Virus record (IMG/VR): IMGVR_UViG_3300010373_000054
Coordinates: 1-56,806 of that record
Origin: a virus
Lineage: Duplodnaviria > Caudoviricetes
DNA: 56,806 bases
Direction: 5' to 3' (one strand)
Of this stretch, positions 1,510 to 37,558 are shown piece by piece (within the stretch, counting starts at the first letter, position 1; every line of letters begins with the position of its first letter). A program made the position numbers and the translations under genes. The notes beneath the pieces are model-generated. The model worked only from the letters and a program-made list of their open reading frames with translations, was not told where the DNA came from and did no database searches.

Positions 1510-2616
1510 TCAAATCAGATTAACAAAACTGCGTGAATCTTCGCCTTTTTCAAAGTCGTATGTTATTGAAGTCAATCTTCGCTTAGATACATACCCACCA
1601 TTCGCAGAGTAAGCATCTCTAGTTGCGATAGTATTGAATCCTTCAACATCAACCCCTCCAAACTCTTTGTTTTGTTTGCTATGGAAGTGACCATGCAACA
1701 AGTGTCGAAATTTTGTTTGCCCCCACCATTCGCTATATTCAGAAGCCAATGCCATTGCAGCACGTTCCTCTTTCATGGTATGACCATGGAACATACCAAT
1801 AAGGTTTACACCATATTTATACGCTTTAAGCTGTCGCGGACTATCATCGATAACAATTCGATCATCGTCTTTAGAGAACATCTTCAAAGCAATATTCAAT
1901 GCAACTGTAGCATCAGGATCATGATTACCGGCAACGTTGCGGAACACAACACGCTTATGCTTACTCAAAGCAATGTCAATGATATTAACAAAAACTTCAA
2001 CAGCCGTATAAATTATCTTCTGATATCGCGAATCAACATCAAGGATATGTCCCGAAGCTGGAGTCATGTTCTTTGAATCGTTGATATGAATTGCATCACC
2101 AAGATTGACAATCAAACATTCATTTGTTGGTTCTGACTTTTCGACAAGCTTCGCGAACGTTTCAATAGCTGTTTGTTTAGCAATCTTCAAATCATAATCA
2201 TCGCCGCATTCTTCGCCCCAAGCCTGCATACCAAAATGCAAATCAGCAAGAGGATAAACAGTCATCTTGTAATCATTAACTACGTCTGGCGACTTCTGAA
2301 AATCAGAATAATATTCAATATCCTTGAAAGCTTCAGTGAAGTATTCGGCAAGCTGTTCTACATCAGGACCATCAACACGAGTTTTAACCCACTGTGCGCG
2401 AACGTTTCCGTTCTCGTCATATAGAGTGCTTACACCTTTAACATTGTGACCATATGGAACAGACTTCAATGATAGGCCGTCATTTCCTGTTAGCGCTGCT
2501 TTTTCCAGATAGCGACCAACGGTCCTATGAGATACGCCAAGTTCACGAGCAACCTTAGCCTTATTTCCGTATTCTGCGTATAGACGCGCTGCATTTTTAA
2601 TAATATCGAAATCCAA
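1510..2616 (-). CDS. N-terminal HTH + calcineurin-like metallophosphoesterase
   Basis: DLHFG, LGDAIH, GNHD, HGH and HGHFH motifs; HTH 'KVARELGVSHRTVGRYL'; TTG start. Confidence 0.85.
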   Translation of the reverse strand: MDFDIIKNAARLYAEYGNKAKVARELGVSHRTVGRYLEKAALTGNDGLSLKSVPYGHNVKGVSTLYDENGNVRAQWVKTRVDGPDVEQLAEYFTEAFKDIEYYSDFQKSPDVVNDYKMTVYPLADLHFGMQAWGEECGDDYDLKIAKQTAIETFAKLVEKSEPTNECLIVNLGDAIHINDSKNMTPASGHILDVDSRYQKIIYTAVEVFVNIIDIALSKHKRVVFRNVAGNHDPDATVALNIALKMFSKDDDRIVIDDSPRQLKAYKYGVNLIGMFHGHTMKEERAAMALASEYSEWWGQTKFRHLLHGHFHSKQNKEFGGVDVEGFNTIATRDAYSANGGYVSKRRLTSITYDFEKGEDSRSFVNLI

Positions 2617-2654
2617 AACAATAAAACCCTTCCACTGTGTTAAAAGATGTTAAT

Positions 2655-2683
2655 CTCTTAGCATAATGAAAGGGTTATGTCAA
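2655..2683 (-). promoter_or_regulatory. sigma70-like promoter overlapping an RBS-occluding hairpin
   Basis: TTGACA-N17-TAAGAG with TG extension; hairpin 2625-2676. Confidence 0.55.
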
Positions 2684-3009
2684 CGTTCCATAAGGATTTT
2701 TCTAACCTCACGAAATTCGTCTGTGAGGTTTTTAATGTTCTCAGCAAGCTGCCTGTTTTGCTCTGTCATGCGATCAAGAATTCTACTCTCAACATCAGCA
2801 ATCATGGTCTTTGGTGCATATTCTTTTGCGATAGCAAGCTGCATCTCAACCATTGTATTTTCTAAGTGTGTGATTTTTTCTGTGTTAGATTGAATCTTAG
2901 AAGCGTTAGTTTCGGATCGGCTTTTCAAACTAACCCACTGAACGATGAAGCCAACAACAATAGAACCAAGGGCAATGATTGTGCTGATAGAGATATTTAA
3001 ATCAAACAT
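2680..3009 (-). CDS. putative holin / single-TM coiled-coil lysis protein
   Basis: N-terminal TM then coiled coil; last gene of lysis cassette. Confidence 0.5.
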   Translation of the reverse strand: MFDLNISISTIIALGSIVVGFIVQWVSLKSRSETNASKIQSNTEKITHLENTMVEMQLAIAKEYAPKTMIADVESRILDRMTEQNRQLAENIKNLTDEFREVRKILMER

Positions 3010-3218
3010 CAATCCCACCACCCTTTAGCCTTGCCATAAGCATTGTTTTTGGCTATCGTCTTTGCCGCACCAATATCATTTTCAACAAGATATTTGGCAG
3101 TAGGGGAAAGCATTTCAACCTTTTTGAATTCTGTATGCTGATCACTTACGGCAATCGTCTGGCAACCCACCAAGGACGATGCACAAATCAGAGCCAGACA
3201 TAGCATCAATTTCCGCAT
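3009..3218 (-). CDS. o-spanin (Rz1-like lipoprotein)
   Basis: signal peptide with lipobox LVGC; overlaps i-spanin 3' end in another frame. Confidence 0.75.
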   Translation of the reverse strand: MRKLMLCLALICASSLVGCQTIAVSDQHTEFKKVEMLSPTAKYLVENDIGAAKTIAKNNAYGKAKGWWD

Positions 3219-3381
3219 CAGTCTTTCCTTTTAATTTTGAGTTGTCTTCTTTGCTCTTTGCCAGAGCAACAGCGATAGCGGCTTTACCGGCTTCATATCC
3301 ATTAGAATATTGCTTAGGGCCAATATACATCAGCCCCGCAACAATACCCAATGCAACACCGATGATTACAAGGTATTTCAT
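3142..3381 (-). CDS. i-spanin (Rz-like)
   Basis: N-terminal TM + helical periplasmic part, directly after endolysin. Confidence 0.7.
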   Translation of the reverse strand: MKYLVIIGVALGIVAGLMYIGPKQYSNGYEAGKAAIAVALAKSKEDNSKLKGKTDAEIDAMSGSDLCIVLGGLPDDCRK

Positions 3382-3392
3382 TTTCCCAACCT

Positions 3393-4280
3393 TTATTCGA
3401 AAAGTTTTTCAATCCCTTTCTTTACAGCCGGGATCGTGATAAGAGCGTAAATAGCAACACCCATGACGCCAAGAACAAGAGCAAGTTGCGCGCCCCAATG
3501 AAGGCCACCAAAACCAAGCATAGGAGCGGCGGCTAGAACACTGCCCCAAGTCCAAGTTCTTGTTTTCTTAAGGACTGGTTTATCAGCTTCTTTACCAGCA
3601 TCAGAAATTTCATGTTTAACCTCTTCAGGTGTTTCTTCAGGAACCAAAATAGGTGTAGATTCTACCACACTTTCTTGTTTTTGTCCAACGTTTTCTACTC
3701 CATAACCTTCGGCAATAAGTAGCTTTTCGAAAGATCGTGCATATTCTGCAATACGATCACCCATCTTCTTGCCGTTATCAACCTTGTTTTTGTCGCCATT
3801 AATAATAGCACGAGCATTGAAATAATCGCTCTTGGAAAGTGTGATGTAATCTGACAACTTCTTGCCAGTAAACCAACCTTCTTTCATGCCACGTAGCATA
3901 ATCAAAGTTGCATATTCAAGTTCCATTACTTTCGAAGGACTTTTTACAAAGTCAACGCCAAGCTCTTTCTTTGCTTTTGCATAATTATCTTCATGCGTAA
4001 GCTGAACATAACCCCGACCAAAGAATCCAGAAGTCCAGTAATCTTTTTTAACCCAAGAAAGTTGACCTTTCTTGAAAGCATTAGTCAAACGCGATTTAAC
4101 CGTTGCATCTGAAACCGTTGTTTCTGTTGGCTTCTGTGTCTCTTTAATTGGCTTGATAGTATGCCAAGTCTCGTGATATGCTGTGGATAAAACATAAGCT
4201 AACTCGTTTCGAAGAAAGCCCATCTCTTTTGCGATTTTAATGATATATCTTGAATCGCCTAAATCTAAATTTATTGTCAT
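3393..4280 (-). CDS. endolysin, GH19/lysozyme-like, with hydrophobic C-terminus
   Basis: AYVLSTAYHET and FFGRGYVQLT..NY motifs; ARAIING; C-terminal TM segment(s). Confidence 0.85.
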   Translation of the reverse strand: MTINLDLGDSRYIIKIAKEMGFLRNELAYVLSTAYHETWHTIKPIKETQKPTETTVSDATVKSRLTNAFKKGQLSWVKKDYWTSGFFGRGYVQLTHEDNYAKAKKELGVDFVKSPSKVMELEYATLIMLRGMKEGWFTGKKLSDYITLSKSDYFNARAIINGDKNKVDNGKKMGDRIAEYARSFEKLLIAEGYGVENVGQKQESVVESTPILVPEETPEEVKHEISDAGKEADKPVLKKTRTWTWGSVLAAAPMLGFGGLHWGAQLALVLGVMGVAIYALITIPAVKKGIEKLFE

Positions 4281-4308
4281 TGACTTTTCTTTCTTTTAAT
4301 TTTATCAA
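4280..4308 (+). promoter_or_regulatory. promoter for HNH gene, predicted leaderless mRNA
   Basis: TTGACT-N17-TATCAA; predicted +1 falls on ATG at 4315; no SD. Confidence 0.45.
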
Positions 4309-4314
4309 ACGTTT

Positions 4315-4782
4315 ATGAAAACGCTAGAAGATAGATTTTGGAATAAGGTTGATAAACGTTCTGTTGATGAATGTTGGTATTGGAATGGATATCGTGACAA
4401 ATTTGGTCACGGTCAAATAGGATTAGGGAGGAGAAATGAAGGCTTGATATATACTCATAGACTTTCATACGAACTTCACAACGAAGTTAAAATTGACGCA
4501 AATTTGTGCGTATGTCATAAATGCGATATCCCTTATTGTGTAAATCCAAAACATCTTTTCTTAGGTTCTAAGAAAGACAATTCTAATGATATGGTTTCAA
4601 AGGGTAGGCATACTTATGGAGAAAAACAGCCAAATTCTAAATTGAAAGAGGTTGATGTCATTAATATAAGAAAAATGTATTCATATGGTGGATATTCTCA
4701 AGCAGATATATCTAAAATTTATGGAGTGACCAGAACTTTAATTGGTTTAATAATTAACAAAAAGAGGTGGGGCCATGTTTAG
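4315..4782 (+). CDS. HNH homing endonuclease with C-terminal HTH
   Basis: ECWYW, HRLSY, VCHKCD..CVNPKHL, N..DM motifs; opposite strand to flanking operon. Confidence 0.9.
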   Translation: MKTLEDRFWNKVDKRSVDECWYWNGYRDKFGHGQIGLGRRNEGLIYTHRLSYELHNEVKIDANLCVCHKCDIPYCVNPKHLFLGSKKDNSNDMVSKGRHTYGEKQPNSKLKEVDVINIRKMYSYGGYSQADISKIYGVTRTLIGLIINKKRWGHV

Positions 4783-4845
4783 CCCCATTTCTTTTGCGAT
4801 TTTGATAATATGGCGGCTGTCGCCAATATCAAGACTAATGGTCAT
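4747..4845 (-). pseudogene. orphan 5' fragment of the endolysin gene
   Basis: encodes MTISLDIGDSRHIIKIAKEMG, matching endolysin start MTINLDLGDSRYIIKIAKEMG, then runs into HNH antisense and stops at 4747. Confidence 0.85.
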
Positions 4846-4849
4846 TTAT

Positions 4850-5272
4850 TTATTCTCCTGATAATATTTCTGAAGCTCTTGCTTCACCGAATAGCTGATT
4901 TGCTATCTGCTCAAGCAGCGGCCAAAGCTCATGATCAGAGCGGAATGTTGCAGCAGTTTCGAATATCTTACGAGTACGAAAAGGCTGCGTTGCCATAGCT
5001 TCATTCACCTGATCAGCCTCGGCTTCTGTCAATCTTTCCCACAATGTGACAGCTGGCAGGATAGTGACAACCGGCTGAGGTTCGGGAGTTGGCGGCTCGT
5101 ATTCAACCACACGCCCGTTTTCCCATTTCCTAAAGCCAGTATTGTCAATAAATTCCAGCCATTGTTCGTCGGTTATTTCAATAGCACCAACCGGCACTTC
5201 CGGAGTGTGATTGTCCTGCCAATAAAAAGCGGTTGGGAAGCCGCTTTCGTCAAACATTGCAAATTTTGACAT
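4850..5272 (-). CDS. tail fibre assembly/chaperone-like protein
   Basis: 'VPVGAIEITDEQWLEFI' Tfa-like motif; follows fibre gene; higher GC. Confidence 0.65.
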   Translation of the reverse strand: MSKFAMFDESGFPTAFYWQDNHTPEVPVGAIEITDEQWLEFIDNTGFRKWENGRVVEYEPPTPEPQPVVTILPAVTLWERLTEAEADQVNEAMATQPFRTRKIFETAATFRSDHELWPLLEQIANQLFGEARASEILSGE

Positions 5273-6273
5273 TAGGCCTTACCTCTCGCATACCAACGGA
5301 TATTGCCAACTGTTAGCGGTCCTGATCCGCTCGTACCATTAATGAGACGGCACCAAACAACTTGACCCGTTCTTCGGTCTACTCCCCAATCCCATGATTG
5401 GTAGATTACTGGTGTAAAATTGACTGAGTTCCAATCCGTTAGGAGGGTTGGAATAAAAACAGAAATGCTCCCGAAAGCACGCGGATAAGTAATATTGGCT
5501 CCTCCACCGCTATCCAGTGTCGTTACCTCTCCCCATTGCTCCATTTCACCATTCGGCCAAATAACACCACCATTGGTCACTGTTCCGAACACTTCACCGC
5601 CCATAGCTGTCATCATCGCGGCACCTGTTGATGCGGCCATGAATGTGCGGGCGCGCAAGGTTAAAGGCGTAAGGGCAGCTGCTGTATCGCTGTAGAAAAA
5701 CGGCATACTGTTTTCCACGGGCGATCCAGCTAGATTAAGCAGTGCAATTGCAGCTGTTGTAATATCGCTCAACGCAAGGTCGCCGTTGGCATCCGTATTC
5801 AGAAGCTTATTTGCAGCCAACGTAAGCGCCGCCAGCTTCGCCAGACTGCTGTTTGGGTCTTGGATACCAAAGGTTGATGGGTCTGCTAACGTCATAGCAC
5901 CCGGACCTGTAAAAATAGGAACTCTATTAGGAGCACCGACAAGAGCCGCCAAAGCCTCAACATTGCCGCTTGTCATAGTCTGCAAAAGCTGTCTTACTGC
6001 TGGATAATAGCCAGTGTCGTAAGGAGTAAACTGAATCTCATAAGCTGCCGCCGTTTGTGCATCTCCCTGCCAAGGATAAGCAAGTGTAAGGCTAGTGTTG
6101 CTTTCAACAGAAAGAATTCTTACACCATCACCTTTATGTGTTCCAAATATATCGTTAGCTCTAATTGAGCTAGTCCATTGTGTGCCTTGACCTGTTACAA
6201 CGGTTCCACCATTCGCAACTGTTGCTGTTCCAGTATTATAATAACTCTGATCAATATCAATTGCCATTGTCAA
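5272..6273 (-). CDS. tail fibre protein
   Basis: 'YNTGTATVANGGTVVTGQGTQW' anchor; C-terminal 'WPNGEMEQWG...ITYPRAF' gp53-like domain. Confidence 0.8.
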   Translation of the reverse strand: MTMAIDIDQSYYNTGTATVANGGTVVTGQGTQWTSSIRANDIFGTHKGDGVRILSVESNTSLTLAYPWQGDAQTAAAYEIQFTPYDTGYYPAVRQLLQTMTSGNVEALAALVGAPNRVPIFTGPGAMTLADPSTFGIQDPNSSLAKLAALTLAANKLLNTDANGDLALSDITTAAIALLNLAGSPVENSMPFFYSDTAAALTPLTLRARTFMAASTGAAMMTAMGGEVFGTVTNGGVIWPNGEMEQWGEVTTLDSGGGANITYPRAFGSISVFIPTLLTDWNSVNFTPVIYQSWDWGVDRRTGQVVWCRLINGTSGSGPLTVGNIRWYARGKA

Positions 6274-6460
6274 TTACCTCTGATTTCACTACTGGCACTC
6301 CTTCATTCTCATCTTGAGAAATAATGTCTTCCAGTTCTTGAATTTTTGCTTGCTGAACATAAGCCATTTGGGAATGACCAAGGGCGCGATTACGCCAAAA
6401 TTCAGCTAACGCTTCCGCCTCTCTTATGGCAACTTCAGGCGATATATTAATTTGTTTCAT
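6257..6460 (-). CDS. hypothetical tail-region protein
   Basis: in-operon ORF with SD. Confidence 0.65.
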   Translation of the reverse strand: MKQINISPEVAIREAEALAEFWRNRALGHSQMAYVQQAKIQELEDIISQDENEGVPVVKSEVIDNGN

Positions 6461-35792: not shown

Positions 35793-35918
35793 CATATATG
35801 ACCTATTACCACTAAAACAAGCATTAAGGGGTAATGTAAGGCTCTTTAATCAGAAATAGCCATTGACTATGACCTATGGTTGTGAGATTATGGGTTATTG
35901 AAACAAGGAGATAATGAA

Positions 35919-36086
35919 ATGAAGACGTATCGGATTGATGGTGTTTACCAACACGGATATGAAGAATGGTTGACTATTGGATGTCCTGAAGATGAGGTCG
36001 GCAGACATATTGAAGATTATCTTGAAGAGAGAACCCCTAACGGGGAAAAGCGATTCAAAAGTATTATCGTTACAATTGAAGACTAA
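35919..36086 (+). CDS. cassette gene, paralogue of 36768-36941
   Basis: own promoter (35863) and AAGGAG SD; TYRIDGVY...CPEDEV. Confidence 0.75.
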   Translation: MKTYRIDGVYQHGYEEWLTIGCPEDEVGRHIEDYLEERTPNGEKRFKSIIVTIED

Positions 36087-36279: not shown

Positions 36280-36510
36280 ATGAACGTTACGGTAGTTTCA
36301 AAGGAAGAAGGCAGAATTCAAGTTGAAATCGAAATGAAGAATACGATGCTGGAAGATGAGAAATATTGCGTAGTATTTGTAGAATTCAATGGCCGTATGA
36401 TTGAAACTGTTTACGTTCAACGCAAAAATGGAAAGTATGCAGAACTAAACCCACAAAAACATCGTTATCAGTTTAACAGGGTTGCTGAAATTGCAAGAAA
36501 GGCGCTCTAA
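36280..36510 (+). CDS. cassette gene, hypothetical
   Basis: own promoter (36223); stop codon inside repeat hairpin. Confidence 0.75.
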   Translation: MNVTVVSKEEGRIQVEIEMKNTMLEDEKYCVVFVEFNGRMIETVYVQRKNGKYAELNPQKHRYQFNRVAEIARKAL

Positions 36511-36600
36511 GCGCCTTTTTCTTTGTCTAAATGTAATTTAGTTGTTGACTTATGGTTCATGGTATGGGAATGTAAGTCATCGAAACAAGGAGATAAGCAG

Positions 36601-36771
36601 ATGCCTAAATACATGATTCAGGTTCTTGGAACATATCTTGAATGCGTTGGTGAAACTGTAGAAGAGCTTCGCATTAATGGTATGAAGCTTAAGAACAAAC
36701 ATAACCTATCTGGCATGACTTATCGCATATTCAAAGATTATAAGTTTGTGAAAGATTGTGTGTTCTCATGA
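36601..36771 (+). CDS. cassette gene, hypothetical
   Basis: own promoter (36545), AAGGAG SD. Confidence 0.7.
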   Translation: MPKYMIQVLGTYLECVGETVEELRINGMKLKNKHNLSGMTYRIFKDYKFVKDCVFS

Positions 36772-36941
36772 GTTCAACATACGGAATAGATGGCGTCTAT
36801 TCATGTGGAATGAAAAGATGGCTTATGCTTAATTGTCCTGCTGATGAAGTAGTAGAATGTGTTCAAATGTATTTAAACGAAAAAATTGACGGTAAGCCGA
36901 AATTCAAAGAAATTAGGATTTATATTGAAAGGCGTTATTAA
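36768..36941 (+). CDS. cassette gene, paralogue of 35919-36086
   Basis: TYGIDGVY...CPADEV; stop inside repeat hairpin. Confidence 0.7.
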   Translation: MSSTYGIDGVYSCGMKRWLMLNCPADEVVECVQMYLNEKIDGKPKFKEIRIYIERRY

Positions 36942-37033: not shown

Positions 37034-37267
37034 ATGGCTAAAGCTTACTTCCTTCCACTGGTTTCACTCCCTGTAATTATTGATGAGCCGGGTGAATACG
37101 TAACACGTTGTGGTGATGTTGTTACAGTAACCATCGTTAGCACAAGACATGATTTGAATTGCCATGGCTTCTATAATGATGGTCATGTCAACGAAAGCTG
37201 GCACAAGTCAGGTCGTCTATATGCAACAACTGAAAGCTTCAATGATATTGTTTCTAAGGCGCTCTAA
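37034..37267 (+). CDS. cassette gene, hypothetical
   Basis: own promoter (36974); 'GEYVTRCGDVV'; stop inside repeat hairpin. Confidence 0.75.
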   Translation: MAKAYFLPLVSLPVIIDEPGEYVTRCGDVVTVTIVSTRHDLNCHGFYNDGHVNESWHKSGRLYATTESFNDIVSKAL

Positions 37268-37357
37268 GCGCCTTTTTCTTTGCCTAAATGCATTTTTCCT
37301 GTTGCAATGCATTTTAATCTATGCGATAAATGATTATCGAACCAAGGAGAGATAACA

Positions 37358-37558
37358 ATGTCAGACAAGGTTTTTGGTTATGATCTTCAAGATATCCTTG
37401 ATGGTCAACAGCGAAAAGGAAAGCTAGTCTCTAACCCAATTGATTTATCCAAGACTGGAGATTATGGGGCTGATCCTATTGGCGATGGTACTTTTCGTAT
37501 GATCCCTAGTGGTGACATTGTTGACTTTGAAGAAAGAAATAAAAGGCTTAAAAGATAA
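37358..37558 (+). CDS. cassette gene, hypothetical
   Basis: own promoter (37302), AAGGAG SD. Confidence 0.7.
   Translation: MSDKVFGYDLQDILDGQQRKGKLVSNPIDLSKTGDYGADPIGDGTFRMIPSGDIVDFEERNKRLKR

Follow-up and report, generated by a model that had tools for sequence, protein, structure and literature searches.

Endonuclease genes that carry a replacement end for the gene in which they sit are known from fungal mitochondria, where mobile open reading frames (mORFs) are located in the 3' ends of atp6, atp9, cox2 and nad3; in the passages of PMC3630166 that describe them, a foreign C-terminus has been inserted, the native C-terminus is left downstream, and the duplicates share 64-81% DNA identity and encode nearly identical protein. 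The examples named in those passages are Allomyces macrogynus atp6 (the first case, cited there), Glomus sp. atp6, atp9, cox2 and nad3, Rhizopus oryzae atp9, as well as cox2 from Mortierella verticillata (PMC3630166). Here we describe a similar layout in a phage. The window, by which we mean the whole stretch of DNA analysed, is a linear 56.8-kb virus record (IMG/VR IMGVR_UViG_3300010373_000054; Caudoviricetes), metagenome-assembled and with a completeness estimate of 77%. Between positions 4218 and 4845 it contains a homing-type endonuclease gene of the HNH_3 (His-Me finger) family flanked by two minus-strand copies of the first 21 codons of an endolysin gene.

The likeness to the fungal elements is considerable. 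In both cases an endonuclease gene lies in the end of a protein-coding gene, a diverged copy that conserves the protein stands on the functional side, and the other copy is stranded; the DNA identity of the two copies is 71% here. The arrangement that marks the fungal mORFs, a nuclease gene between two diverged copies of one gene end with a single copy joined to the gene, is thus found in the window. The fungal elements, however, are mitochondrial, occupy 3' ends, encode LAGLIDADG or GIY-YIG enzymes and are fused in frame, whereas the present element is in a phage, at a 5' end, of the HNH_3 family, and antisense with its own expression signals. A further difference is the terminator-like hairpin that is built from the junction here. 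The mORFs with a replacement gene end are the closest precedent, and the locus is a phage counterpart of theirs.

Several systems in phages and prophages share parts of this layout. The free-standing homing endonuclease genes (HEGs) of T4-type phages, such as seg and mob, lie beside or between essential genes and spread with flanking DNA by break repair, a process called "intronless homing" (PMC2988022, PMC2790892, PMC2330249). Like them, the HNH gene of the window is a free-standing nuclease gene adjoining an essential gene. To our knowledge, the T4-type genes are intergenic and leave no duplicated gene fragment. Their homing uses homology on both sides. In ICP1 and other phages, HEGs are placed at the boundaries of genetic exchange, and the relevant passages also report spliced fragmented genes and duplications inside the DNA-binding domains of HEGs (PMC10448857). 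As far as those passages go, the resemblance consists of an HNH-3 type gene beside essential late genes at a border between conserved and variable DNA; they do not mention a duplicated neighbouring gene end such as the one found here, and where passages of PMC10448857 and PMC12724721 speak of duplication or remnants they describe something else. No phage description of an HNH gene with a duplicated gene end was found in open-access literature text. Prophages such as phage 21 and e14 integrate in icd and bring a replacement end with synonymous differences. They too are mobile elements that keep the target gene intact through a differently spelled displaced end, but they rely on an integrase and site-specific recombination at a host gene's 3' end, whereas here a nuclease gene lies inside a phage gene. 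Finally, the HNH group I introns of phage lysin genes also place an HNH gene within a lysin gene; at the present locus, by contrast, the ORF runs antisense, it is a second start that keeps the gene working, and no ribozyme was found over 3300-5400.

The duplicated endolysin start

The late genes near the site are all on the minus strand, and the HNH_3 gene (4315-4782, plus strand, 155 aa) runs antisense to the lysis genes. On one side of it is the functional copy of endolysin codons 1-21 (MTINLDLGDSRYIIKIAKEMG; 4218-4280, minus strand), which is in frame with the 295-aa protein, a GH19-type endolysin with a hydrophobic C-terminal tail (3393-4280, minus strand); an AT-rich spacer of 34 nt (4281-4314) separates the divergent start codons of endolysin and HNH gene. 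On the other side is the remnant copy (MTISLDIGDSRHIIKIAKEMG; 4783-4845, minus strand), whose codon 21 adjoins the HNH stop codon TAG (4780-4782). Reading on from the remnant gives a dead-end ORF of 32 codons (4747-4845, minus strand), in which the remnant is followed by 11 codons antisense to the HNH 3' end and then a stop. The Shine-Dalgarno (SD) sequence of the original endolysin start, AGGAG, is still present at 4855-4859 (minus strand), where it overlaps the final codons of the upstream tfa-like gene. The endolysin ORF itself has no upstream start, because an in-frame TAA lies 15 nt before its ATG. An earlier note on this DNA had described an antisense HNH gene between two 21-codon copies, the upstream one behind the operon ribosome-binding site and ending after 32 codons, the downstream one rescuing the endolysin with a synonymously diverged second start, and in all of this its coordinates and sequences hold.

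Of the 63 nt in each copy, 45 are identical, as are 18 of the 21 encoded aa. The spelling differs synonymously in ten codons, among them a Ser codon (AGC/TCA) and an Arg codon (CGC/AGA), and three further codons differ non-synonymously (S4N, I7L and H12Y). The differences are unevenly spread: the last seven codons agree at 19 of 21 nt, with an exact run of 14 nt, and codons 2-14 at 26 of 39 nt; beyond both edges of the duplicate the similarity drops off abruptly. When the window's 2140 stop-to-stop segments were all compared with one another, the duplicate came second among the 33 pairs listed (E = 2.6e-8), a match far beyond chance. A single internal protein match outscored it (46% over 52 aa, E = 2e-12); it belongs to a set of small paralogous ORFs and repeated short segments of protein on the plus strand, at 35886-36083 and 36744-36938, and also at 36449-36617 and 37158-37377. 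A repeat search found no short repeats resembling a target-site duplication at the edges of the block, and a 12-nt inverted match between 4219-4230 and 4760-4771 was discarded as of chance quality, since 1 kb contains 12 such pairs. The protein collection lacks the exact 32-aa remnant peptide, and a search there (30-161 aa, residues 1-60, E up to 10) gave no candidate for a remnant peptide or a short fragment of the endolysin N-terminus.

The gene between the copies looks intact and under selection. Its product matches HNH_3 (PF13392) over residues 46-90 with 27.5 bits against a cut-off of 24.8 in a Pfam profile search, and H48, C67, H68, C70, D71, C75, H80 and N89 are invariant across 14 sequences, the window's included; the C-terminus forms a helix-turn-helix-like tail. 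The closest relative, P0121, is 85% identical, also 155 aa long, and encoded on a 1.5-kb contig. All other homologues are at most 55% identical, and at most 50% over at least 95% of the protein. The gene is AT-rich, with a GC content of 0.33 compared with 0.40 for the window. At locus L026 (4001-5411), the genes of a distant GH19 endolysin and of an HNH_3 protein, each 37% identical to its counterpart in the window, stand on one strand, with the HNH_3 gene about 600 nt downstream of the endolysin gene.

For the origin of this layout we favour, with a probability of roughly 0.55, intron-less homing that was repaired homologously on one side only. A break would first have occurred in the 5' part of an HNH-free endolysin allele. 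The gene-body end would then have invaded an HNH-carrying donor and taken over from it the spacer, the HNH gene and a 5' part of more than 21 codons, whereas the other end, with no homology beyond about 70 nt because of the variable tail-fibre/tfa module, would have been sealed illegitimately just after the HNH stop codon. This would have left the recipient's ribosome-binding site and its initial 21 codons stranded as a fossil. The synonymous divergence would simply be the natural divergence of two alleles that are both under protein-level selection, although some of the differences probably protect the HNH-linked allele from its own nuclease. The idea that the replacement start was "recoded" would stand only in so far as a second start has diverged synonymously; its spelling looks like ordinary donor-allele divergence that probably reaches well beyond codon 21, given that relatives are 81-85% identical over 4027-4260 and 96-99% further 3'.

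In a stricter form of the idea in the earlier note, HNH gene and spacer, together with respelled codons numbering exactly 21, would make up a discrete cassette that inserts at the codon 21/22 border and replaces the start, and selection would have favoured the respelling because it removes the site of the cassette's own nuclease. Base composition bears on this in two ways. At 0.30, the functional copy has a lower total GC than any 63-nt window of the endolysin body (overall 0.40) and comes near the 0.33 of the HNH gene, as a cassette would predict; GC at third codon positions (GC3), however, is 0.33 in the copy and 0.31 in the body and does not separate the two, with the remnant at 0.48 and nearer the GC-richer upstream genes. 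The claim that the functional copy is AT-rich like the HNH gene is for this reason only half right, and with total GC and GC3 in disagreement, 21 codons are too few to settle the copy's origin by composition. Consistent with a discrete insertion, the body-matching contig of a second metagenome (X2, introduced below) ends at 4220, the codon 21/22 border, and at the sister locus L043, also discussed below, a tract of only about 30 nt sets the allele apart from the empty one. Nevertheless, only 2 of the last 21 nt differ at the junction, where the 14-nt stretch is identical, so that the heavy respelling would lie 20-60 nt from the insertion point, and divergence from relatives continues to about 4030. 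A cassette of exactly these limits is therefore doubtful.

The junction hairpin and expression signals

The two endolysin starts differ strongly in their translation signals. At the remnant start, the duplex of AGGAG with the anti-SD sequence is worth -7.4 kcal/mol, among the stronger of 26 starts scored, whereas the working endolysin start reaches -0.9 kcal/mol, the third weakest of the 26, and has almost no SD; the HNH start, at +1.9 kcal/mol, has no recognisable SD. Between them lies a bidirectional terminator-like hairpin (4760-4795, both strands) placed exactly at the junction of HNH stop and remnant: its arms are formed by the HNH codons for KKRWG and by remnant codons 18-21, and an A-run and a T-run flank it. 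The folding energies on the two strands are -18.9 and -21.2 kcal/mol (z = -4.3 and -4.7), and none of 200 shuffles was as good on either strand. A consensus scan also returned a terminator-like site on the minus strand at 4787-4768. The HNH residue Gly153, whose codon is part of the GGGGC arm, is restricted to this protein and P0121, and 10 of 12 other aligned homologues have Lys or Ser instead. In the AT-rich insert there are 11 promoter-like sites, compared with 5.2 +/- 2.3 expected, and two of them are on the endolysin strand within the HNH antisense.

The expression signals of the endolysin have thus changed, with a strong SD on the dead-end copy, almost none at the working start and a terminator-like hairpin between the two. 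Ribosomes that start at the old, strong SD would make a dead-end peptide of 32 aa. Transcription between the tail-fibre operon and the lysis genes could be terminated at the hairpin from either side, and the endolysin would be made from an SD-poor start, possibly from a promoter within the insert. The timing or level of lysis would probably be altered as a result, and it is reasonable to suppose from these signals, as the earlier note did, that lysis expression is affected.

Joining position 4783 to position 4217 would yield a perfect full-length endolysin, and HNH-containing group I introns occur in lysin genes of some phages. One could thus envisage 4218-4782 as a group I or group II intron with an antisense ORF that is spliced out, joining remnant codon 21 to body codon 22. 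This is very improbable. Rfam covariance models run over 3300-5400 on both strands (E up to 10) gave eight weak hits and no intron family; the best of these, to a flavivirus xrRNA model, scored 25 bits against a gathering score of 50 and merely reflects the junction hairpin. Moreover, the HNH gene is antisense, a terminator-like hairpin directly follows the remnant, and the downstream copy comes with an ATG of its own, an in-frame stop shortly before it and a protein sequence that is conserved, all of them features for which an intron would have no use. The element is accordingly intron-less as far as Rfam models can tell, in keeping with how it was first described.

Contigs from other metagenomes

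Tandem copies in a metagenome-assembled virus contig invite the suspicion that two strain variants of the endolysin start were stitched together by the assembler, all the more since strain mixtures occur in related samples such as that of metagenome X2. This, too, is hardly credible. A single Logan contig made by an independent assembler from run X1, which may be the source sample, spans 2600-4924 with 0 differences, and the two copies are separated by a complete, conserved gene. In addition, X2, a different metagenome, holds a 314-nt contig that is collinear with 4517-4830 (48 mismatches and no gaps, about 85% identity) and covers the HNH gene's 3' half together with the junction and the greater part of the remnant. 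The block of remnant, hairpin and HNH gene is therefore also present in a relative that is 85% identical, and the layout is not specific to one assembly.

Contigs of X2 and of two further metagenomes, X3 and X7, match other parts of the locus; they do not cover 4336-4459 and 4956-5699, a gap that says nothing on absence. Their identity to the window is 96-100% over about 2918-3640 and 81-85% over 4027-4260, and X3 is 91% identical over 3659-4109. Within 3780-4030 the identity to the three metagenomes falls from 96-100% to 81-91%, with a small cluster of indels at 3830-3838, and this stretch is a recombination boundary within the endolysin gene. Upstream of the site, a contig of X7 joins 4853 to 5941. 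It skips or replaces the GC-rich module at 4854-5940 (minus strand; GC 0.45-0.54 compared with 0.40 for the window), which comprises the C-terminus of the tail fibre and the tfa-like gene and looks like an exchangeable host-range module. As at least one relative skips or replaces it, this module is the non-homologous left flank of the HNH block. A short X7 match from 4279, preceded by T-rich letters, and X1 matches at 4272-4310 and 4513-4547 were set aside as apparently unrelated AT-rich or HNH-motif matches.

Such mosaicism could mean that the nuclease had no part in the event. The layout might have been left by a single illegitimate crossover of two related phages in a co-infected cell, for instance while the tail-fibre module was being exchanged, with the HNH gene already intergenic before the endolysin in one parent and the divergent copy being the other parent's allele. 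The skipped or replaced module and the jump in identity from about 84% to 96-100% inside the endolysin gene are what such a crossover would leave; both copies, moreover, look like normal alleles at the protein level, and GC3 is the same in the functional copy as in the gene body. Relatives without the module nevertheless still match 4784-4853 (the X7 contig at 60 of 67 positions over 4784-4850), so that remnant and leader belong to the conserved backbone and did not come with the variable module. Together with the survey results given below, this makes a bystander role of the HNH gene unlikely.

The endolysin and its relatives

The endolysin scores 22.9 bits with PF00182 (Glyco_hydro_19), just under the cut-off of 25.5, and most of its 2010 homologues carry PF00182; annotated endolysins of Acinetobacter and Rhizobium phages are 40-47% identical (Acinetobacter 44-47%). 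The N-terminus encoded by the functional copy is conserved in homologues down to about 45% identity. At the other end, residues ~240-295 (window 3393-3560) contain two hydrophobic stretches, WGSVLAAAPMLGFGGL and AQLALVLGVMGVAIYALITIPAV; this C-terminal tail is common to homologues down to about 45% identity and suggests a membrane-anchored endolysin family. A separate holin was not identified.

Close relatives are found in a single source. A megablast of 2600-6300 against phage records gave no match, and tblastn of the endolysin gave 307 phage records, every one below 60% identity. The best match in IMG/VR is 47% identical; among metagenome contigs from JGI/ENA, long matches do not exceed 49% and matches spanning no more than 71 residues reach 52-62%, and GTDB genomes give at most 46%, or 54% over 57 residues. 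Endolysins of 70-96% identity occur among Logan proteins only, with P0243, P0244, P0001 and P0002 at 88-96% and P0003, P0004 and P0245 at 70-71%. The N-terminus of these relatives reads MTISLDLGDSR(H/Y)IIKVAKEMG. Compared with P0244, the endolysin of the window has 6 of its 12 aa differences within the first 55 residues (p = 0.012, for a split picked post hoc).

These relatives also speak to whether the HNH gene is a variable presence. Full-length endolysins 70-96% identical are encoded on contigs of 4.3-67 kb (P0243, 4.3 kb; P0244, 14 kb; P0002, 5.6 kb; P0004 and P0245, 62-67 kb), and there is only one HNH cluster above 55%. With endolysin relatives on contigs of this size and a single close HNH cluster, most endolysin relatives probably lack this HNH gene. 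At the level of proteins, seven endolysin relatives (P0001-P0004 and P0243-P0245) stand beside one close HNH cluster, and a presence/absence polymorphism may lie behind this; such a polymorphism is seen at the sister locus L043 when compared with L212 (below).

Other HNH_3 loci

To see how often an HNH gene lies between copies of a neighbouring gene end, same-strand protein-level duplicates were sought across the 1.2-kb flanks of 85 loci, made up of 80 further IMG/VR HNH_3 loci and the earlier ones; the window served as positive control and was found. Duplicates across the HNH gene were detected at 6 of 85 loci, compared with 0, 1 and 0 of 85 in three permutations of the flanks (1/255 permuted pairs; p = 0.001). 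Two of the six, L043 and L147, are convincing, and the other four are weak or of low complexity. L167 and L181 were set aside as Arg/Gly-rich low complexity, L178 for an 8-aa identical start 900 nt away, and L041 for matches in both strands that probably reflect a DNA repeat. The enrichment across HNH_3 genes speaks against a nuclease that was merely present at an unrelated crossover.

At L043, an HNH_3 gene lies on the same strand before a gpA-type large terminase gene, and its stop codon overlaps the terminase ATG. The insert comprises 821 nt (1728-2548, compared with 1006-1010 of L212) and is absent from the near-identical L212, whose terminase is 93% identical overall and about 99% over the first 600 nt. 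Within it, upstream of the HNH gene, is a remnant of the terminase start that is 14 codons long (1843-1884) and is followed by 6 junk codons; the ATG of the remnant overlaps the stop of the preceding ORF, as at the native junction. The HNH-linked terminase has 6 differences from the empty allele L212 in the first 30 nt and 7 in the next 570 (p = 1.3e-5). A co-conversion tract is thus clear at L043, and L043 and L212 show that such blocks are insertions and that the gene start beside the nuclease has been specifically altered. This is the pattern expected of a protected target site, and differences clustered within 30 nt of the HNH gene point to nuclease-linked selection and speak against a bystander. 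At the same pre-terminase site, L220 and L221 (785-1504) have a different 239-aa ORF whose first ~45 residues are 84% like the HNH ORF of L043 and whose body is unrelated; the site may be a hotspot where different nuclease-like genes share a common 5' leader, as these sequences suggest.

L147 (2177-3207) is a 3'-end version of the endolysin layout. Here a DUF7427 gene of 79 aa is separated from a duplicate of its own last 32 codons (2180-2275) by an HNH_3 gene in antisense (2288-2971). The copies are identical at 18 of 32 aa, including 15 of the last 20, and the far copy keeps the native junction to the next gene. No relatives of L147 were found in IMG/VR. With these two loci beside the window's, the layout is probably recurrent in phages.

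Weighing the proposed origin

A number of observations weigh against one-sided homing as we have set it out for the endolysin. First, the GC3 of the functional copy fits the gene body and not the HNH gene. Second, divergence beside the HNH gene may be unremarkable: the relatives are also only about 84% identical upstream of the GC-rich module (5941-6292), so that a divergence of ~16% may be the baseline as well, and the 81-85% over 4027-4260 could represent that baseline with the 96-100% stretch being a recent exchange. As it equals the upstream baseline, the lower identity beside the HNH gene is no proof of a donor tract. Third, the remnant, expected to be the recipient's own start, is closer to the relatives than the functional side only as a trend: X7 has 7/67 mismatches in the remnant and 27/142 on the functional side (115/142 identical; p = 0.08), in a relative that may itself carry the HNH gene. 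At the protein level, the remnant and the functional copy each differ from P0001, P0002, P0243 and P0244 by 2-3 aa, and both have I16 where these four closest relatives have V16. Fourth, the empty allele is seen at the sister locus L043 (in L212) and not at the endolysin. In addition, the terminator and promoter calls are consensus matches only, and both cleavage by the nuclease and resistance of the allele are putative.

The remnant at L043 raises a further difficulty. It matches the real terminase starts of L214 and L215 at 38/39 positions but that of L212 at 28/51, and it is thus a fossil from another lineage that travels with the block and not the recipient's own start. By the same token, the remnant of the window may now be carried with the block, rather than being this genome's own former start. 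If so, remnant and junction hairpin might serve as a portable left homology arm and terminator, and the whole block, from old start through terminator and HNH gene to respelled start, might be a self-sufficient cassette that replaces a gene start. We put this forward tentatively, as a possibility with the odds clearly against it. If it were true, the cassette could home into any phage with this endolysin, whatever its upstream tail-fibre module, and re-wire lysis expression there; with L043 and L147 added, such cassettes would form a general class of homing elements in phages that has not been described so far and has its parallel in the fungal mORFs.

Neighbouring genes

Upstream of the site are the tail-fibre gene (5272-6273, minus strand) and a 140-aa gene (4850-5272, minus strand), the last of the GC-rich variable module, which is tfa-like by position only and has no family match. 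Downstream of the endolysin are two overlapping small genes on the minus strand, at 3142-3381 and 3009-3218; one product, of 79 aa, has an N-terminal membrane helix, and the other, of 69 aa, a signal of the lipoprotein type (…SSLVGC). The two resemble an i-spanin/o-spanin pair with overlapping genes, and neither has a Pfam family match.

Implications

The duplicated endolysin start is a rare footprint that pins the entry point of a free-standing phage homing endonuclease in a gene. It suggests a route by which such a nuclease may enter a coding region with neither intron nor intein, namely by bringing, or leaving behind, a second copy of the gene end. It also provides a simple rule for finding further sites, a protein-level duplicate across an HEG, which gave candidates at 6 of the 85 loci surveyed. 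If one-sided homing is the correct reading, the locus would link the biology of phage HEGs with that of the mitochondrial mobile ORFs that carry gene ends, and some of the short orphan ORFs and apparent false starts that phage annotations list beside HNH genes would find an explanation. The locus would further illustrate one way for selfish nucleases to re-wire how genes for lysis or packaging are expressed.

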